The notes below the pieces were generated by a model, which did no database searches, had not been told where the DNA came from, and saw nothing but the letters and a program-made list of their open reading frames with translations. The translations under genes were made by a program, and so were the position numbers. Positions 2,641-57,625 of a stretch of 64,000 nucleotides of DNA are shown piece after piece; the first letter of the stretch is position 1; every line of letters begins with the position of its first letter. Where the stretch lies: assembly GCA_012514745.1 (NCBI GenBank), contig JAAYZR010000010.1, forward strand, positions 1,401 to 65,400. The letters are read 5' to 3'. The stretch comes from Candidatus Undivivens industriae. Lineage in GTDB: Bacteria > Omnitrophota > Gorgyraeia > Gygaellales > Profunditerraquicolaceae.

Positions 2641-3909
2641 TCAAGCGGACTTCGCCGCTATATCACGGCGGTAATGCATTCCTTCAAAATCTATCTCCCC
2701 GGCAGCGGAATAGGCGGAGGCGGCGGCTTCCTTGATATCGCGCCCCAGAGCGCTGACCCCCAGCACCCTTCCCCCGTCGCTCAAACACCTGCCTCCGGCG
2801 AGCCTGGTGCCGGAATGAAAAACTGCCACGTCTCCGCGCCCGGCGAGCCGCTGGAGCCCTTTTATCTCCATTCCCTTCGAATATTCCCCCGGGTAACCTC
2901 CGGAAACAAGCACCACACAGACGCATGCCCGCTCGTCCCATTCCAGCTCCGGTGCCTCCGGCAATTTACGGCGGCTGACAGCCAGCAGCGCTTCCGCCAG
3001 ATCACTCTTCATACGCGGCAGGATCGCCTGCGTCTCCGGGTCGCCGAAACGCACGTTGAATTCCAGCACCTTCGGTCCTTCGGCGGTAAGCATGATCCCG
3101 GCATAAAGCACCCCGCGGTAATCCAGACCTTCCTTACGCAATCCTTCCATGGCGGGCAGGAGTACCGTCCGGTTTATCTCCTCCTGCTGCGCGCAAGAAA
3201 GAAAAACCGCCGGAGAATAAGCGCCCATGCCCCCGGTATTAGGCCCTTTGTCGTTGTCGAAAACACGTTTGTGATCCTGGCTGGAAGCCAAAGACACTAT
3301 TTTTTGCGTATCCGTGAATGCGAGGATGGATACCTCCCTGCCTTCGAGGCATTCCTCGATGATTATCTTTTCCCCGGCAGGGCCGAATATCCTGCGCCTC
3401 ATTATATCGTCCACCGCCGCCAGCGCCTCGCCGAGTCCGGCAGGAATAATCACGCCTTTGCCGGCGGCCAGGCCGTCGGCCTTGATCACGCGCGGACCGC
3501 CGCATTCGCGCAAATACCCCGACGCCTTATCCGGATCGTCGAAAACCTGGAAAGAGGCGGTAGGTATGCCGTGCCTGGACATGAACCGTTTGGCGTAAAC
3601 CTTACTGGATTCCAACCGCGCTGCCTGTTCGTCCGGGCCGAAGATATCCAGCCCGCGGCCGCGGAACGTTCCGGCGATCCCGGCGGCAAGCGAAACTTCC
3701 GGGCCGACCACGGTTAATGCTATCTTTTCCTTCAGAGCGAAAGACAACAATCCGTCCACGTCGTCGGCTTTTACCGGGACGCATTCCGCTACGGAAGCGA
3801 TCCCTCCGTTGCCGGGAGCGCAGAATATCTTCTCGACCGAAGGCGACTGCGCCAGTTTCCAGCAGATTGCGTGCTCTCTACCCCCGGATCCGACCACGAG
3901 TACTTTCAT
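2641..3909 (-). CDS. purD: phosphoribosylamine--glycine ligase
   Basis: 422 aa; starts MKVLVVGSGGREHA and has an ATP-grasp fold typical of PurD. Confidence 0.9.
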   Translation of the reverse strand: MKVLVVGSGGREHAICWKLAQSPSVEKIFCAPGNGGIASVAECVPVKADDVDGLLSFALKEKIALTVVGPEVSLAAGIAGTFRGRGLDIFGPDEQAARLESSKVYAKRFMSRHGIPTASFQVFDDPDKASGYLRECGGPRVIKADGLAAGKGVIIPAGLGEALAAVDDIMRRRIFGPAGEKIIIEECLEGREVSILAFTDTQKIVSLASSQDHKRVFDNDKGPNTGGMGAYSPAVFLSCAQQEEINRTVLLPAMEGLRKEGLDYRGVLYAGIMLTAEGPKVLEFNVRFGDPETQAILPRMKSDLAEALLAVSRRKLPEAPELEWDERACVCVVLVSGGYPGEYSKGMEIKGLQRLAGRGDVAVFHSGTRLAGGRCLSDGGRVLGVSALGRDIKEAAASAYSAAGEIDFEGMHYRRDIAAKSA

Positions 3910-13985: not shown

Positions 13986-14060
13986 TGGTGCCGAGGGAGG
14001 GAATCGGACCCCCCACGCCGGCCTTTTCAGGGCCGCGCTCTACCACTGAGCTACCTCGGC
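13986..14060 (-). tRNA. tRNA-Phe (GAA)
   Basis: The reverse complement folds as a cloverleaf: GCCGAGG acceptor, anticodon loop CTGAAAA, TTCGATTCC T-loop, and an encoded CCA. Confidence 0.9.
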
Positions 14061-18776: not shown

Positions 18777-19990
18777 TCAGGCAATTCTCCCGTCCTGCAG
18801 ACACGCGAGAACCACGATGCGCTTTCCCTCGCTCTGCGCTCCTGAGTGGCATAATCCACTTCCACCAGCCCGAAACGAGGAGCGAATCCCTTATCCCACT
18901 CGAAATTATCCAGCAGCGACCAATAGAAATAACCTTTAAGATCAACCCCGGCTTTTATCGCGCCCGCGGCGGCTTCGAGATGACTTTTTATGAAACCGGC
19001 CCTTTCCCGGTCGTCGGCTGTGGCTATCCCGTTCTCCAGTATGAGCACCGGCAACGCGTATTTCCTGAGGCTAAGCAGTATCTCCGACAGCCCGCGCGGA
19101 TAAATATCCCATCCCAATGAACTCTTGTCCCAGGCATTATCGGAACGCGTCCCCGACAGAAGAGACCGTAGGCCGGGAATTTCCACGCTCACAAGTTGCC
19201 GGGTGTAATAATTCAATCCGATATAATCAAGCGTCCCGGCATGAAAAGCGGCGTCCAGGAACATGCGGTTGAACATCATATCACGCAAGAAGACTCCCAG
19301 TTGATTCCATATCCCGGGCCTCCAGGGCATGAAATACTGCATATGGTGAGCCACGCTTACCGAAGGCGCCGTATTCTTATAAACCCCGCACCTGTCATGT
19401 ATTATGCGGTAAGCCAGTTCATGCGCCGAGAGCAGATTACGAGAGACCCGCACAGCTTTAATGAACGAACGCTGCCGGGGAGGCCAGACGCCGGTAAGAT
19501 AAGAATGGTAGGCGTAAACAAGCGGTTCATTTACGGTCACCCAGTAACGGGCTTTGCCCGAAAGGACGCCGGTTATTTTTTCTATATAACGGCAAAAACA
19601 GGCCGTATTGGCGCGCTTCAGCCATCCGCCCTTGCGGCTGAACCAGGCCGGGCTGGTAAAATGACACAGAGTTACCACCGGTTCCAGATCGTTGGCGGCA
19701 AGAGCGTCCAGGACGGAAGAATAATGGTCCAGGGCGGATTGCGAAAAACGTCCTTCTTCCGGTTCTACACGGCTCCACTCGATCGAGAAACGGTGGGCGT
19801 TATGCCCCAGGGAACGGGCGAGGGCGAAATCTTCCTTATAAAGGGAGAAATGCCGGCAGGCGGCGGAAGACCTATCAAGCCCGCCGCCCGACTGCTCCCA
19901 TTGCCACCAATCGTTGAAGAAATTGTCTCCTTCCACCTGATGAGAGGAAGTCGCAGCGCCCCAGAGGAACCCTTCAGGAAAAGTAAACAT
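18773..19990 (-). CDS. glycoside hydrolase family 1 beta-glucosidase
   Basis: Starts FPEGFLWGAATSSHQVEG; acid/base motif TVNEP and nucleophile motif ILENG. Confidence 0.88.
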   Translation of the reverse strand: MFTFPEGFLWGAATSSHQVEGDNFFNDWWQWEQSGGGLDRSSAACRHFSLYKEDFALARSLGHNAHRFSIEWSRVEPEEGRFSQSALDHYSSVLDALAANDLEPVVTLCHFTSPAWFSRKGGWLKRANTACFCRYIEKITGVLSGKARYWVTVNEPLVYAYHSYLTGVWPPRQRSFIKAVRVSRNLLSAHELAYRIIHDRCGVYKNTAPSVSVAHHMQYFMPWRPGIWNQLGVFLRDMMFNRMFLDAAFHAGTLDYIGLNYYTRQLVSVEIPGLRSLLSGTRSDNAWDKSSLGWDIYPRGLSEILLSLRKYALPVLILENGIATADDRERAGFIKSHLEAAAGAIKAGVDLKGYFYWSLLDNFEWDKGFAPRFGLVEVDYATQERRARESASWFSRVCRTGELPE

Positions 19991-20057
19991 TTGTCGTTAT
20001 TATATTTAGCAGCCGGTTTAAAACGGAAGAGAAGTATTCTTATATTATAATATAAAC

Positions 20058-20266
20058 AAAAAAAATCCCAACGTAAAAGTTGGGATTTTTCGCAAGTATA
20101 AGCCGATAAAGGTGACAACACAACTTGCTGCCGCACCTTTAACCGGTAGCCCAGCCACCATATTACCCACCTCTTTTGACCGTCTTAGCGGCCTCAACTG
20201 AACGTGATGTAACGTAGGTCTGTGGCTTTGCGCCCCCCGGTTTTCCCGAGGTTTACCTTTATCGGC
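20058..20266 (-). ncRNA. structured RNA of ~209 nt with its own promoter and terminator. It is either a c-di-GMP-I (GEMM)-like riboswitch leader of the GH1 operon or, alternatively, a 6S-like sRNA.
   Basis: A 12-bp stem (GCCGAUAAAGGU / ACCUUUAUCGGC) closes 165 nt. The 5' junction reads GGUAAACC-UCGG-GAAA-ACCGGG-GGGCGCAAAGCCACAGACC, which matches the Vc2-type GEMM core GGCAAACC..GAAA..GGACGCAAAGCC. An intrinsic terminator lies at 20057-20090. The GH1 ATG is ~67 nt further on, in the same orientation. Confidence 0.45.
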
Positions 20267-20273
20267 TACAAAA

Positions 20274-20302
20274 AGTATACCTCATCTCCCCGGTTTTTTC
20301 AA
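20274..20302 (-). promoter_or_regulatory. sigma70-like promoter (TTGAAA-17-TATACT) driving the structured RNA
   Basis: The minus strand reads TTGAAAAAACCGGGGAGATGAGGTATACT. The predicted TSS is the G of GCCGAUAAAGG, 7 nt downstream. Confidence 0.5.
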
Positions 20303-20329
20303 GGCAGAGCTTTTTCAATCAAACCGCTT

Positions 20330-20830
20330 TTATTGCAGCGGGATAGTTTGTTCCGTTTCAACGGTCCCGGTTGAGGAAGTTAAATGCTTCTCCATGACGG
20401 CCCAGGTCTTGGGGCCGACTTTGCCGTCTACCGCCAACCCGTTGGATTTCTGGAATTCCTCTATAGCCGCTTTCGTCTTTGGTCCCACTTTACCGTCTAT
20501 ATTTCCGGAATAATATCCCGCGTTCTTAAGCGCGGTCTGGATGTCCTGGGCGGACGGTTTATACGGCCCTGAAGGAGGTAAAGGTTCCAGTACCGGAACG
20601 GCCGCCGCGGAAACCGCTTCAGCCGCCTTCTCTCCGGCGACCGGTGTCACGGCGGGAAGCCTGTTTTCCTGTATCGCAATCTTATTATCCAGGGTCTGCC
20701 CCCCCAGAGAATCAGCCGACATAGGAGCCTGCATCTCCTCAAGACTCTGCTGTTTTTTATTGCACCCGTTTACGGCCAGGAAAGATACGGCCACCGCTAC
20801 CACCGCTGTGAAGATCTTAGTTCTGCCCAT
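20330..20830 (-). CDS. lipoprotein with two peptidoglycan-binding (PG_binding_1) repeats
   Basis: Lipobox AVNGC. Two DGKVGPKT..A..EFQ repeats. The start is chosen at MGRTKIF, preceded by AAAGGAG. Confidence 0.7.
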   Translation of the reverse strand: MGRTKIFTAVVAVAVSFLAVNGCNKKQQSLEEMQAPMSADSLGGQTLDNKIAIQENRLPAVTPVAGEKAAEAVSAAAVPVLEPLPPSGPYKPSAQDIQTALKNAGYYSGNIDGKVGPKTKAAIEEFQKSNGLAVDGKVGPKTWAVMEKHLTSSTGTVETEQTIPLQ

Positions 20831-23845: not shown

Positions 23846-25450
23846 TTACCTCTTTATTTTTAGAGCGCACCTGATAAAATCGCGGAATATCGGATGGGCC
23901 TTGTCGGGCTTGGACTTGAATTCAGGATGGAACTGCACCGCCATGAAGAACGGATGGCCGGGCAACTCCACGATCTCGACAAGATTCTTTTTCGGGTAAA
24001 TACCGGAGAAGACCATACCTTTCTTCTCCATCAAACGGCGGTATTTATTGTTGAATTCGTATCGATGCCGGTGCCGCTCTTCTATCAGCCTTTTTCTGTA
24101 ACAGCACTGCGCCCGGGTATTAGGCGATATCTGGCAGGGATAAGCGCCCAGGCGCATGGTACCGCCCATATCCTCCACATCTTCCTGTTCCTTTAAAAGG
24201 CTGATTACCGGATCCCGGGTATCGGGGGCGAACTCGCTGGAATCAGCGCCCTTGAGACCGCAGATATTCCTGGCGAATTCGATGACCGCGCATTGCATCC
24301 CAAGGCAGATGCCGAAGAACGGGACGCGCTTGGTCCTGGCATATTCGACGCTCTTTATCTTCCCTTCAATGCCGCGGGATCCGAACCCGCCCGGCACCAG
24401 GATACCGCAGACATTACGCAGATAATGTTCCGCCCCTTCTTTATCAATATCCTCGGAATCTATCTTTTCCACTTCCACTCTGCAGTCGTTCGCGATACCG
24501 GCGTGCGCCAAAGCCTCGTAAATAGACTTATAGGCGTCCTGCAGGCCGATATATTTGCCGACTACGGCGATCCTGGTCTTGTGGCGCGGGGAAACAGCCT
24601 TCTCCACCACGCTTTTCTCCCAATTCTTCAGGGTGGAAGGCCTGGCTCTAATGCCGAAATGTTTCAGTATGAGCCTGTCAAGAGACTGGTCCTTGAATAT
24701 CAAAGGAAGCTGATAGATCGAATCCACATCCTTGGCTTCGATAACCGCCTCCTGCGGCACGCTGCAGAAAAGCGATATCTTCTCTTTCAATTCCATCGAG
24801 AGGCTTTTTTCGCTGCGGCAGATGAGGATGTCCGGCTGTATTCCTATCTCGCGCAGGGTGCCGACACTGTGCTGAGTAGGCTTTGTCTTCATCTCTCCGG
24901 CGACCTTTATATAAGGGACCAGGGTGAGATGGGCGTAAAGAACGTTATTCTGTCCGGCGTCCAGCCTGAACTGGCGCACAGCTTCCAGGAAAGGAAGGCT
25001 CTCGATGTCTCCGACCGTGCCGCCGATCTCCACCAGCACCACCTGCGCCCTGGAGACGGCCGCCACTTTCTTGATGCGGTCTTTTATCTCGTTGGTAATG
25101 TGAGGAATGACCTGGATGGTCCTGCCGAGGTAATCTCCCTTGCGTTCGCGCGAGATCACGGCGTGATATACCTGGCCGGTGGTAACGTTGTTGAATTTGC
25201 CGGTCCTGGCGGAAGTGAAGCGTTCGTAATGCCCGAGATCGAGGTCGGTCTCGGCGCCGTCGTCGGTCACGTACACTTCACCGTGCTGGTAAGGGTTCAT
25301 CGTGCCGGGGTCGACGTTGAGATAGGGGTCGAACTTCATCAAGGCGACACGCAGACCCTGAGATTCCAGTATCTTGCCTATGGAAGCGGCAGCAATCCCC
25401 TTGCCGAGGCTGGAAATAACGCCGCCGGTGATGAATATGTATTTACACAT
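23846..25450 (-). CDS. pyrG: CTP synthase
   Basis: Starts [18 protein letters not shown]; carries the GIC(L)GMQ glutaminase motif. Confidence 0.92.
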
Positions 25451-36397: not shown

Positions 36398-38221
36398 TTA
36401 TGCGCGGCCGGAACCGGCTATCATCTCTTTTATTACAGTGTTGAATTCATGTTTAACCAGTTCTTCCAGCGGCAGGGGCATTTTTAAAGACCAGTTCTGC
36501 GGCCCGACCGTGCCGGGCGTGTTCAAGCGGTAGCCATACGGATCTTCCCGTAATATACCGGCCGGATAGAACCAGTCCAGAAGGGTCTGCACGCAGAAAA
36601 CCGCCCGGGAACGCAGATTCAACGCCAGAGCTTTTCTGCCGAGTCCGGGATCGGCTTTCTCGGCGGGAACGCCGTTCAAACCGAGCTGCGCCCAGAATTT
36701 ATCTTTTTCTCCGTAAGTATCGGCGTGCATTTTCAATATATCTCCGACTTCATTCATACTCCGTCCCAGTACCGAAGCAAGCGCGCCCGGATCTCTCATA
36801 CCCTGAAGCCAACGCAGCCTGCCGTGCCTCGAAAGAACCGGGTCGAAAAGCAGTCCTTTTATATAACCGTAATCGATTCCTTTCTCGTAACACTTGCGCA
36901 TAAAAAGACCTTCGTCCACCGTCCCCGCTTCATTCTCCCACCAGGCGGCGAAGTTGGTGGTATCGTGGGTGGATAACATTGTCACCGCCGGGAAACGCTG
37001 CTCTTCAGGCGGGAGAAAATCGTGGCGCGCGTCCCAGTCCTTAGACCAGCGCTGCACGTCGTTGCCCGGGATGCCGTAATCGCGCAGGGTCTCGGTACAT
37101 ACCCGGGGTATCACGCCCAGATCTTCCGCGCACAACAGCATATCCGTGTTCTCCAGCATTACGGATAGAATCTTCCTGCCGTGTTCTCCCCAGGAATTCT
37201 CGTCCGAAGGGTCGAAACTGCCGTGCAACCCCTGGTTTTCCGGAGGTTCGCCGTAAGGAATACTCCATATCCTGAACAACCCCACCACGTGATCTACGCG
37301 CAGAAGATCGTAAAAATTCCGCGCGTAACGCAGCTTTTCCTTAAGATACCTGTACCCGTCGGCTTCGATCCTGCCCCAATCATAAACCGGCATGCCCCAG
37401 CGCTGCCCCTTGGCACAATACATATCCGGAGGGGCCCCGGCGGCCGAATCCAGCTTAAAAAATTCCGGGTGGGCCCAAACATCGGCGCTGTCGCGCGAAA
37501 CCAGTATCGGCAGATCTCCTTTAAGCAACACACCCTTGTCAGCGGCATATTTCTTGACCGCGGTCATCTGCTCAAAAAGACGCCATTGCAGCCATTCCTG
37601 GAACAGCGTTTCTCCTCTATGTTCCCGTTCGAAACGCGCCAGCGCCTCTTTATCGCGGCGGCGGTAAACATCATCCCAATCATGCCAGGCTTTGCCTTGA
37701 GAATAATACTTGAGGACCTTGAAAAGCGCGAAATCCTTCAGCCAGTACAAGTTATTCTCGCGAAAGGAAGAAAAAGAAGCGCCGGCAGTGTCCGCCTTGC
37801 CTTTTTCCAGGAACATCTCCCAGAGAAAAGAAAGCTTGTCCCACTTCAAGTTATAATCCACGCGCGGCGCTTCCGCGGGGAATTTCTTCCGCAGGGCCCG
37901 GATATAGCCGGATGCTGAACGTCCGTCACCGGAAAAAGAATAATAGAACGGCTCAAGCGCGAAAGAACTTATGGAATCATACGGACAAAAAACTGCCCCC
38001 AGTTCATTCATCGGCAAAAGTTGCAGGATACTGTTGCCGGTAAAAGAACACCAGTCAACGAGCAAGCGCAGATCGTTTATATCGCCTGCCCCTGCGCTCT
38101 GTGAGGAATAAAGCGAAAAAAGCGGGGCGAGCACTCCCGCCCTGCGCTTCACGCCTATCGCGCCCCATTTGTCTCCTGATGCCGAAGCCGCCAATGCCTT
38201 TTCTTCCGATGAGAAATCCAT
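36398..38221 (-). CDS. malQ: 4-alpha-glucanotransferase (amylomaltase, GH77)
   Basis: 607 aa with GH77 motifs; ends ...GWRIPYG. Confidence 0.85.
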   Translation of the reverse strand: MDFSSEEKALAASASGDKWGAIGVKRRAGVLAPLFSLYSSQSAGAGDINDLRLLVDWCSFTGNSILQLLPMNELGAVFCPYDSISSFALEPFYYSFSGDGRSASGYIRALRKKFPAEAPRVDYNLKWDKLSFLWEMFLEKGKADTAGASFSSFRENNLYWLKDFALFKVLKYYSQGKAWHDWDDVYRRRDKEALARFEREHRGETLFQEWLQWRLFEQMTAVKKYAADKGVLLKGDLPILVSRDSADVWAHPEFFKLDSAAGAPPDMYCAKGQRWGMPVYDWGRIEADGYRYLKEKLRYARNFYDLLRVDHVVGLFRIWSIPYGEPPENQGLHGSFDPSDENSWGEHGRKILSVMLENTDMLLCAEDLGVIPRVCTETLRDYGIPGNDVQRWSKDWDARHDFLPPEEQRFPAVTMLSTHDTTNFAAWWENEAGTVDEGLFMRKCYEKGIDYGYIKGLLFDPVLSRHGRLRWLQGMRDPGALASVLGRSMNEVGDILKMHADTYGEKDKFWAQLGLNGVPAEKADPGLGRKALALNLRSRAVFCVQTLLDWFYPAGILREDPYGYRLNTPGTVGPQNWSLKMPLPLEELVKHEFNTVIKEMIAGSGRA

Positions 38222-57549: not shown

Positions 57550-57625
57550 TGGTGAGCCACCCGCGACTCGAACGCGGCACACCCACCTTAAAAGGGTGGT
57601 GCTCTACCGGATGAGCTAGTGGCCC
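57550..57625 (-). tRNA. tRNA-Lys (TTT)
   Basis: The reverse complement gives GGGCCAC acceptor, anticodon loop CTTTTAA, GGTTCGAGTCC T-arm, and an encoded CCA. Confidence 0.88.

Follow-up and report, generated by a model that had tools for sequence, protein, structure and literature searches.

On the minus strand of a 64,000-nucleotide stretch of DNA from Candidatus Undivivens industriae (contig JAAYZR010000010.1; the whole stretch is referred to here as the window), we have found a riboswitch unit that stands between a peptidoglycan-binding gene and an operon encoding a GH1 glycoside hydrolase and a cyclic-nucleotide-binding (cNMP), patatin-like phospholipase. The RNA from 20267 to 20142 is a genuine class I aptamer for cyclic di-GMP (c-di-GMP), also called GEMM-I, and on the sequence evidence this identity is secure. 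The riboswitch class is a known one, and the expression platform is conserved and somewhat unusual. We consider it probable, though well short of certain, that the unit is an ON switch in which c-di-GMP acts at a ligand-sensitive terminator (T1) that is followed by a constitutive terminator (T2), with the output arising from leakage through T2 or from polymerase traffic at a promoter. The same unit was found between the peptidoglycan-binding gene and the GH1/cNMP-patatin operon in at least 30 Omnitrophota loci, and because the layout recurs in that many independent loci it is not due to chance.

Read along the minus strand from 20302 to 20053, the elements follow in the order promoter, segment a, structured core, segment b, and a 13-bp hairpin with U8. 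Promoter P1 (20302–20274) is composed of the –35 box TTGAAA (20302–20297), a 17-nt spacer, and the –10 box TATACT (20279–20274), with 10 of 12 positions matching the consensus. Five promoter-like sites were counted in the region, versus 0.8 ± 1.1 in shuffled sequences. We infer that the RNA starts at A20267 or G20266. Segment a begins 7–8 nt past the –10 box in the window; in all members of the riboswitch unit cTTGAAAa-16/17-TATACT is kept, and the onset of a always falls 6–8 nt past the –10 box. The minimum free energy (MFE) of the 219-nt RNA spanning 20268–20050 was determined to be –86.8 kcal/mol (z = –5.66 relative to dinucleotide-shuffled sequences), and none of 200 shuffles folded as stably. 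Part of this MFE structure is a long stem in which GCCGATAAAGGT (20266–20255) is the exact complement of ACCTTTATCGGC (20113–20102) and which is extended to 13 bp by the pair A20267-U20101. An earlier note on this DNA had listed the promoter, the perfect 12-bp stem, a terminator 10 nt after the stem (20091–20060), and a GH1 start codon farther along in the same orientation (ATG at 19990, 68 nt after 20058), and all four were found in place. A small leader open reading frame (ORF) of 123 amino acids (GTG start, 20136–19765) enters GH1 out of frame and was treated as spurious. Just upstream of promoter P1, the end of the peptidoglycan-binding gene carries a weak terminator-like site, in which a small hairpin, CCGCTGCAATAAAAGCGG (20324–20341), lies across the stop codon with TTTGATTG after it.

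The aptamer matched Rfam family RF01051 over the full length of the model (positions 1–87) with a score of 59.7 bits, where the gathering score is 35, and with E = 3.8 × 10–9 as reckoned for the whole 64-kb window. The GEMM-like core and its resemblance to the Vc2 RNA, as proposed in the earlier note, are upheld by this match. No match at E ≤ 10 was obtained in 19950–20400 for either c-di-GMP-II (RF01786) or 6S RNA (RF00013), and the interior of the RNA folds as a three-way junction and not as a 6S-type bubble; the comparison with 6S RNA made previously was dropped for want of any RF00013 match. Helix P1 is short, with a 5' strand at G20266–G20263, placed as in the annotation of the RF03167 model, and a 3' strand at C20145–U20142. 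It has two universal pairs and four in the window, in agreement with the helix annotated in RF03167. Helix P2 occupies 20251–20235. The sole irregularity in the RF01051 match is a 41-nt insertion at the tip of helix P3 (20227–20148).

Relatives were retrieved with the GH1 protein. This gave 80 loci (L001–L080), nearly all from metagenome-assembled genomes of Candidatus Omnitrophota, the closest of which is WOZK01000030.1 (96% identical). The cNMP/patatin gene follows GH1 in 43 of the 80 loci, and a peptidoglycan-binding gene precedes GH1 in most of these 43 that have enough upstream sequence; the riboswitch unit lies between the two in about 20–22 of the 43. A metagenome scan added seven further loci with the unit. 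Among the 33 members collected, 30 sit ahead of GH1-patatin, the exceptions being L088, the tandem aptamer pair of L159, and L155. In a rough neighbor-joining tree of GH1, riboswitch-bearing loci occupy deep branches, and most riboswitch-free loci fall within one derived clade, with a few scattered losses. The unit looks ancestral and long retained at the GH1 position, which argues for some link between it and the operon.

The RF01051 scores of 8 of 11 riboswitch-bearing relatives were 37.8–82.4 bits, and L033, a riboswitch-free control, gave no RF01051 match. The remaining three relatives were listed only under RF03167, a family of the same clan, at about 65 bits (gathering score 59); since all three keep A at position 47, the higher RF03167 score appears to reflect overall sequence similarity and not variant specificity. 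In an alignment of 11 homologous sequences (A1), 92.6% of the cells of the aptamer structure are paired, versus at most 45% with slid partners, and eight pairs are altered on both sides. The covariation score was 0.366, compared with 0.149, and was reached by 0 of 500 shuffles. Covariation was found in helix P2, in distal helix P3, at the 51–143 pair of helix P3, and at the second P1a pair (U·G, C-G, and U-A), so that the helices P2 and P3 predicted earlier are now backed by compensatory changes.

Several relatives carry additional structure in these two helices. Distal helix P3 of L003, L004, L015, L018, L022, L036, L116, and L153 has a shared extension, CAAAGCCGURUCC ... GGAYAGYUAGGCA; the 41-nt insertion in the window (20209–20169) is at the same place and is unrelated to it. 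Branched insertions of 50–130 nt were found in helix P2 of L009, L014, L036, L046, L052, L056, L073, L078, L144, L153, and L158. In these loci the GAAA hairpin is the last branch and the Rfam scores fall (37.8 bits for L046), with the core intact.

The Vc2 RNA contacts its ligand through G20, A47, and C92 and contains a universally conserved interhelical pair, C44-G83 (PMC4744006); the roles of the three contact nucleotides are described there and in PMC6140456. The equivalents in the window are G20257 for G20, A20229 for A47, C20146 for C92, C20232 for C44, and G20155 for G83. All five columns are invariant in alignment A1, by which the window RNA contains the equivalent of the C44-G83 pair. 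G20 recognizes c-di-GMP through its imino and amino groups, that is, its Watson-Crick edge, and the relatives that sense cGAMP (GEMM-Ib) have A at position 20 (PMC6140456). A cGAMP riboswitch is ruled out here by the invariant G in the position-20 column. The consensus of RF03167 (c-di-GMP-I-GGC) reads GACGCGAA (GACGCGAAgCc), with G at position 47. The corresponding sequence in the window and in every row of A1 is CGCAAAG or CACAAAG, with A at that position, which rules out the GGC variant; L022 scores 65.1 bits on RF03167 and yet has A at position 47. From G at position 20 and A at position 47, the RNA is predicted to be of the c-di-GMP type.

The loop of helix P2 is GAAA in most relatives and the pentaloop GAAAA in the window, L001, and L002. 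The earlier note had described the helix as GNRA-capped; the helix is present and the tetraloop is not, although the pentaloop may still adopt a GNRA-like fold. The 11-nt receptor in helix P3 is CCUAAG/UAUGG in most relatives and CCUACG/UAUGG in the same three loci.

Segment a (20266–20255; GCCGAUAAAGGU) forms the 5' end of the RNA and contains the 5' strand of helix P1, the G20 equivalent G20257, and the first nucleotides of P1a (G20256 and U20255). Segment b (20113–20102; ACCUUUAUCGGC) is the switching strand and, besides being exactly complementary to a, pairs with a' (20146–20134; CCGGUUAAAGGUG), which resembles a and consists of the 3' tail of the aptamer, with the C92 equivalent and the 3' strand of helix P1, and its flank. 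The a:b helix, or clamp, places C residues opposite the G20 equivalent and the G that follows it in P1a. Because this G recognizes the ligand, the clamp and the binding pocket are mutually exclusive. The 12-bp stem had been taken for the closing stem of the aptamer; it engages the G20 equivalent and the first P1a nucleotides and is, for that reason, the ligand-free alternative.

In 28 of the 33 members all 11 positions of the clamp are complementary, and the deviations in L003, L073, L022, and L052 are wobble-compatible or compensatory. It might have been a trivial by-product of the aptamer sequence, since the sequence of a is unremarkable among GEMM-I RNAs. The metagenomes gave 121 matches to it, 93 of which contain a GEMM core, and b is present in just 9 of the 93 with the same a, which rules out this possibility and marks the clamp as a trait of this subclass; seven of the nine stand ahead of GH1. 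For the window, the clamp state was calculated at –86.4 kcal/mol and the aptamer-enforced state at –73.6 kcal/mol, so that the clamp is favored by 12.8 kcal/mol. Before b is transcribed, the aptamer state lies just 3–4 kcal/mol above the minimum. As modeled, these energetics match the pattern expected of a kinetically controlled switch.

Variants of the clamp and of its surroundings were encountered in single loci. In L009 (2885–3110), the 5'-terminal a is followed by GGUAAACC and two hairpins and then by a second GGGGUAAACC, at which the Rfam aptamer starts (match 2982–3070); the a:b complement is still perfect, and the arrangement may be a partial 5' duplication. L159 (about 4491–4090, minus strand) has two tandem GEMM-I aptamers in a GC-rich organism and outside the GH1 context, and in the first of them the same a:b complement forms the closure (ACCGAUAAAGG/CCUUUAUCGGC). 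The a:b clamp is found again in L088, a contig from Hainich groundwater (minus strand, from about 1457), where it is combined with a different terminator, ACACCCGAAAAAUCCGGGUGU8. There, TGTTATAAT lies about 140 nt beyond the terminator, close to the end of the stretch read, and GH1 was not found on the contig. On a short metagenome contig, L081, two GEMM-I 5' motifs with cores begin at 1498 and 2066, 568 nt apart, and neither has b.

The same strand b forms the 3' arm of the candidate terminator T1. The local a':b hairpin, CCGGUUAAAGGUG...CACCUUUAUCGG, in which a' is the 5' arm, has a ΔG of –19.7 kcal/mol in the window, and for most members an equivalent hairpin of –10 to –23 kcal/mol is predicted. 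The base of the hairpin is CCG:CGG and engages the C92 equivalent and the 3' strand of helix P1. The U-run directly after b has at least six U in eight in 17 of 33 members, five in eight in 5 members including the window, and at most four in 11 members. The candidate tail in the window is UUAUACUU (20101–20094), a weak one with five U in eight. In L144 and L056, a generic terminator scan picked up both T1 and T2. For the T1 stem to lie directly against the U-run, the CGGC end of b has to be paired, and the partners of this end are nucleotides that the bound aptamer uses. The pairing probability of the CGGC end was 0.96–1.00 without constraint versus 0.17–0.95 with a and CCG withheld; the model of the bound state bars these nucleotides from pairing and takes no account of tertiary or ligand energies.

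These properties can be combined in the following mechanism. The identity and covariation of the aptamer, the conserved alternative pairings, a T2 that is predicted to be constitutive, and distinct promoter signals are shown by the analysis; we infer where transcription starts, that the switch is of the ON type, how efficient T1 and T2 are, and whether GH1 is affected. The riboswitch would begin at the first nucleotide of its own transcript. Until the polymerase has made b, the aptamer would be nearly isostable with its alternatives and could capture c-di-GMP. In the absence of ligand, b would zip with a' (the C92 equivalent and the 3' strand of helix P1) or with a (the G20 equivalent), the pocket would be destroyed, and the pairing of b would set a CGGC-ended stem against a U-rich tract to give terminator T1. 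With ligand bound, a and the CCG of a' would be held in the aptamer, the CGGC end of b would be left without a partner, T1 would be crippled, and the polymerase would continue. About 10 nt farther on it would reach the ligand-independent T2, which would double as the –35 region of the GH1 promoter and would either predate the riboswitch or be independent of it. Regulation is likely to act on the passage of T1, and the regulated quantity would be the flux of transcripts from promoter P1 that reach T2 and a second promoter, P2. Because T2 is predicted to be ligand-independent and to double as the promoter –35 region, any effect on GH1-patatin would come through leakage at T2 or through polymerase traffic at the overlapping promoter. 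A constitutive second terminator cuts the level of the output yet keeps the fold-regulation. T2 may leak, and the patatin gene, which has a ribosome-binding site, may gain more from read-through than GH1.

T2 (20091–20053) is a strong intrinsic terminator and consists of GAAAAAUCCCAAC, the loop UUUUAC, GUUGGGAUUUUUU, and then U. Its stem (20091–20060) has 13 bp and a 6-nt loop and is followed by U8, with the U-run reaching 20053; the 3' arm holds TTGGGA (20071–20066). The earlier note had treated this hairpin as the terminator gated by the riboswitch, with c-di-GMP deciding whether it forms and thereby gating the transcription of GH1 from promoter P1. The order of promoter, aptamer, terminator, and gene is indeed that of the textbook. 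However, a search of the aptamer, the linker, and b for a conserved partner of either arm of T2 found none, and by inspection the best pairing of the T2 5' arm with the aptamer, at GCUGGGUU, has only four contiguous base pairs (UGGG/CCCA). The probability of T2 was 0.99 in both modeled states for the window and at least 0.97 for the stem in the free and bound-mimic ensembles of 14 of 14 members tested. In addition, the hairpin AAUCCCRRC-loop-GYUGGGAUU is found ahead of GH1 in syntenic loci that have no riboswitch (for example L006, L017, L019, L020, L033, L042, L044, L053, L063, and L080), and hence it was not shaped by the aptamer. T2 appears constitutive and not ligand-controlled in these models. 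As a ligand-gated terminator it was rejected, and we regard the classical scheme as the least probable of the readings weighed here.

The T2 hairpin was compared among 35 loci with and without the riboswitch. The 3' arm GUUGGGAUU hardly varies, with 30 of the 35 copies identical, whereas the 5' arm drifts by A-to-G changes that keep G·U pairs. Such a pair is present in 13 of the 35 hairpins, always with G on the 5' arm. Positions 2, 3, 8, and 9 show full compensation, and the loop is 5–20 nt long, with long insertions in L014, L036, L116, and L153. From these patterns, T2 looks like an RNA hairpin of this strand whose 3' arm is also constrained as DNA, namely as a –35 box. A DNA operator palindrome was ruled out by the variable loop length and by G·U pairs that fit only the RNA of this strand. 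A genome-wide repeat or common terminator was ruled out as well, as the sequence occurs once in the 64-kb window and only ahead of GH1 in about 800 kb of loci.

The constraint on the 3' arm can be related to promoter-like site P2 (20071–20044), which overlaps T2 and consists of TTGGGA, 16 nt, and TATAAT (20049–20044), with 10 of 12 matches. In relatives, TTGGGA lies 16–18 nt upstream of TATAAT, usually with a TG extension. The window has a second –10 box, TATAAT at 20004–19999, 8 nt before the GH1 ATG, and no Shine-Dalgarno (SD) site was found ahead of this ATG. Among the 80 GH1 genes, a TATAAT-like box lies 4–15 nt before the start in 70, mostly as TGnTATAAT, and an SD-like site is present in just 7; other genes of the window have clear SD sites, such as AAGGAGG. 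The GH1 mRNA is probably leaderless or nearly so. Given the promoter signals of GH1 itself, the aptamer transcript and the GH1 mRNA are likely separate transcription units that abut at a terminator/promoter composite. The simple scheme of a promoter, a riboswitch-gated terminator, and GH1 is made unlikely by the extended –10 promoter of GH1 and its lack of an SD site. The window and L001 have about 45 extra nt (20043–20005 in the window) between the TATAAT adjacent to T2 and the one proximal to the ATG, and L002 has the ATG-proximal box only; the promoter seems to have moved away from T2 in this clade.

The overlap of T2 and promoter P2 allows for an output that needs no read-through, in which the flux of polymerases from promoter P1, set at T1, would regulate promoter P2 directly by occlusion or recycling. 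The U-tract of T2 lies between the –35 and –10 boxes of promoter P2 at a conserved spacing of 16–18 nt, T1 lies about 40–50 nt upstream of the –35 box, and the 3' arm of T2 is held nearly constant while its partner arm drifts. However, geometry is all that suggests this reading, loci without the riboswitch show an identical overlap into which the upstream gene feeds, and in the window the overlap is looser, with the –10 box nearest the ATG 45 nt farther downstream. We judge it very improbable. A broader proposal, also improbable at present, is that the riboswitch does not gate read-through into GH1 and instead meters polymerases from the strong promoter P1 into a T2 fused to the promoter of a leaderless GH1-patatin mRNA, with c-di-GMP control exerted by occlusion or by handover of the terminated polymerase. 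If true, it would be a riboswitch that acts on the initiation of transcription of the next unit and not on the elongation or translation of its own transcript.

A more substantial rival, if still an unlikely one, is that the unit makes a stand-alone, c-di-GMP-binding small RNA of about 170–215 nt, in the manner of Bdellovibrio merRNA or of sRNAs derived from riboswitches, that starts at promoter P1, always ends at T1 or T2, and exerts no direct cis control of GH1. Such an RNA would serve as a buffer or store of c-di-GMP or act in trans, and it would be stable because its 5' end is sealed by the clamp and its 3' end by T2. It would account for the near-consensus promoter of its own and the 5' end lying within the clamp, for a T2 that is constitutive in the ensemble model, for a GH1 gene with its own promoter and no SD site, for a T2/promoter P2 module that exists without the riboswitch, and for the fully Watson-Crick T2 stems of riboswitch-bearing loci. 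There is also a published precedent for a riboswitch RNA without a regulated gene (PMC3627812). On the other hand, a sponge would hardly be expected to have a clamp that abolishes its binding pocket, and a T1 like that of pbuE, followed by good U-runs in half of the members, implies that regulated elongation matters. The fixed and apparently ancestral place ahead of GH1-patatin in 30 of 33 members also hints at a functional link. Of the trans-acting small RNA offered as an alternative in the earlier note, the discrete small RNA is retained here as a rival, with merRNA as its precedent, and the likeness to 6S RNA is not.

Several observations also weigh against the T1/T2 mechanism that we favor. 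The T1 tail of the window is just UUAUACUU, and 11 of 33 members have four or fewer U in eight; b is fully conserved in the members that lack a U-run, so that the formation of T1 is not its sole role and b must serve another purpose too. No alternative pairing touches T2, and read-through from T2 into GH1 may be very small. In nearly every locus with the riboswitch the T2 stem consists of Watson-Crick pairs throughout, a pattern that suggests tight termination but is confounded by phylogeny. GH1 has no ribosome-binding site, and a read-through transcript may translate it poorly.

The GH1 gene (19990–18773, minus strand) encodes 405 amino acids (Pfam PF00232, E = 9 × 10–82), and the cyclic-nucleotide-binding, patatin-like phospholipase gene (18776–16782, minus strand) encodes 664 (PF00027 and PF01734). 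The start of the latter overlaps the GH1 stop by 4 nt (ATGA) and has the SD site GGGAG. The co-oriented operon downstream of the RNA, as described in the earlier note, is confirmed, and the association is conserved among relatives. A search of the window for motifs of c-di-GMP enzymes gave no GGDEF and two chance-level EALxR matches, and is uninformative. Elsewhere in the window, a 608-amino acid ORF at 38221 (minus strand) lacks an SD site and has the sequence GATAAT 8 nt upstream of the ATG; it may be another leaderless gene. At 23870–21095 (minus strand), carA is accompanied by a 548-amino acid carB-like ORF that covers just the first ATP-grasp half and the oligomerization domain, which suggests a split or shortened large chain of carbamoyl-phosphate synthase. 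Four tRNA genes were found on the minus strand, one at 14060–13989, downstream of the SNF-symporter end of the operon, and three clustered at 57625–56954.

The unit documents RNA-based sensing of c-di-GMP, as predicted from sequence, in Candidatus Omnitrophota, an uncultivated phylum, and nothing relevant was found in the literature on Omnitrophota together with riboswitches. It ties this sensing to a conserved operon of a glycosidase and a cyclic-nucleotide-regulated phospholipase, so that two second-messenger inputs would meet at one locus. For annotation, the aptamer call is safe, and termination control of the downstream gene should not be assumed. The locus is a good test case for whether such riboswitches regulate in cis.

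The aptamer resembles Vc2 and RF01051 in its three-helix junction, in the equivalents of G20, A47, and C92, in the C44-G83 pair, and in a GAAA-type loop of helix P2 that would dock on the 11-nt receptor CCUAAG/UAUGG of helix P3. It differs in the window by the GAAAA pentaloop, the CCUACG receptor, the 41-nt insertion in helix P3, and a helix P1 of 2–4 bp, and more generally because the RNA would start exactly at the 5' strand of helix P1 and carries downstream a conserved, exact complement of that strand of 11–12 nt. The overall fold is shared with RF03167 and GEMM-Ib, but their defining nucleotides (G47 and A20, respectively) are absent here. With respect to the expression platform, the pbuE (ydhL) adenine riboswitch is an ON switch under kinetic control, in which the 5' arm of the terminator is the 3' part of the aptamer, including the 3' strand of P1, and ligand binding blocks the formation of the terminator. 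The logic proposed here is likewise of the ON type, with the 3' tail of the aptamer and the 3' strand of helix P1 as the 5' arm of the terminator. The two differ in ligand and fold, and here the 3' arm of the terminator also complements the 5' strand of the aptamer and a second terminator follows.

The closest precedents for the puzzle of the output are the Bc1 dual-terminator riboswitch and the merRNA of Bdellovibrio bacteriovorus. In Bc1, from the Bacillus cereus group, the ligand opens T1 but leaves T2 folded, and the genes show no response (PMC11218506). As proposed for the window, two intrinsic terminators lie a few tens of nucleotides apart, the upstream one being ligand-responsive while the other remains formed and can hide that response; unlike here, Bc1 lies in a normal 5' untranslated region with a ribosome-binding site, and a translational effect has been proposed (PMC11218506). 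In the present case T2 is the –35 region of a second promoter, the gene has no ribosome-binding site, T2 exists without the riboswitch, and the phyla are unrelated. The Omnitrophota unit would thus be a phylogenetically deep natural case of the responsive-then-constitutive terminator platform that was called puzzling in Bacillus Bc1, with the added twist that the promoter of an mRNA that is probably leaderless shares bases with the second terminator. The merRNA likewise carries a c-di-GMP-I aptamer on a non-coding transcript that runs from promoter to terminator and perhaps regulates no downstream ORF; it is 445 nt long and known through expression data, and no gene is conserved downstream of it (PMC3627812). 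In contrast, the RNA described here, known from sequence alone, has a conserved place before GH1-patatin and, in many members, a predicted ligand-sensitive terminator.

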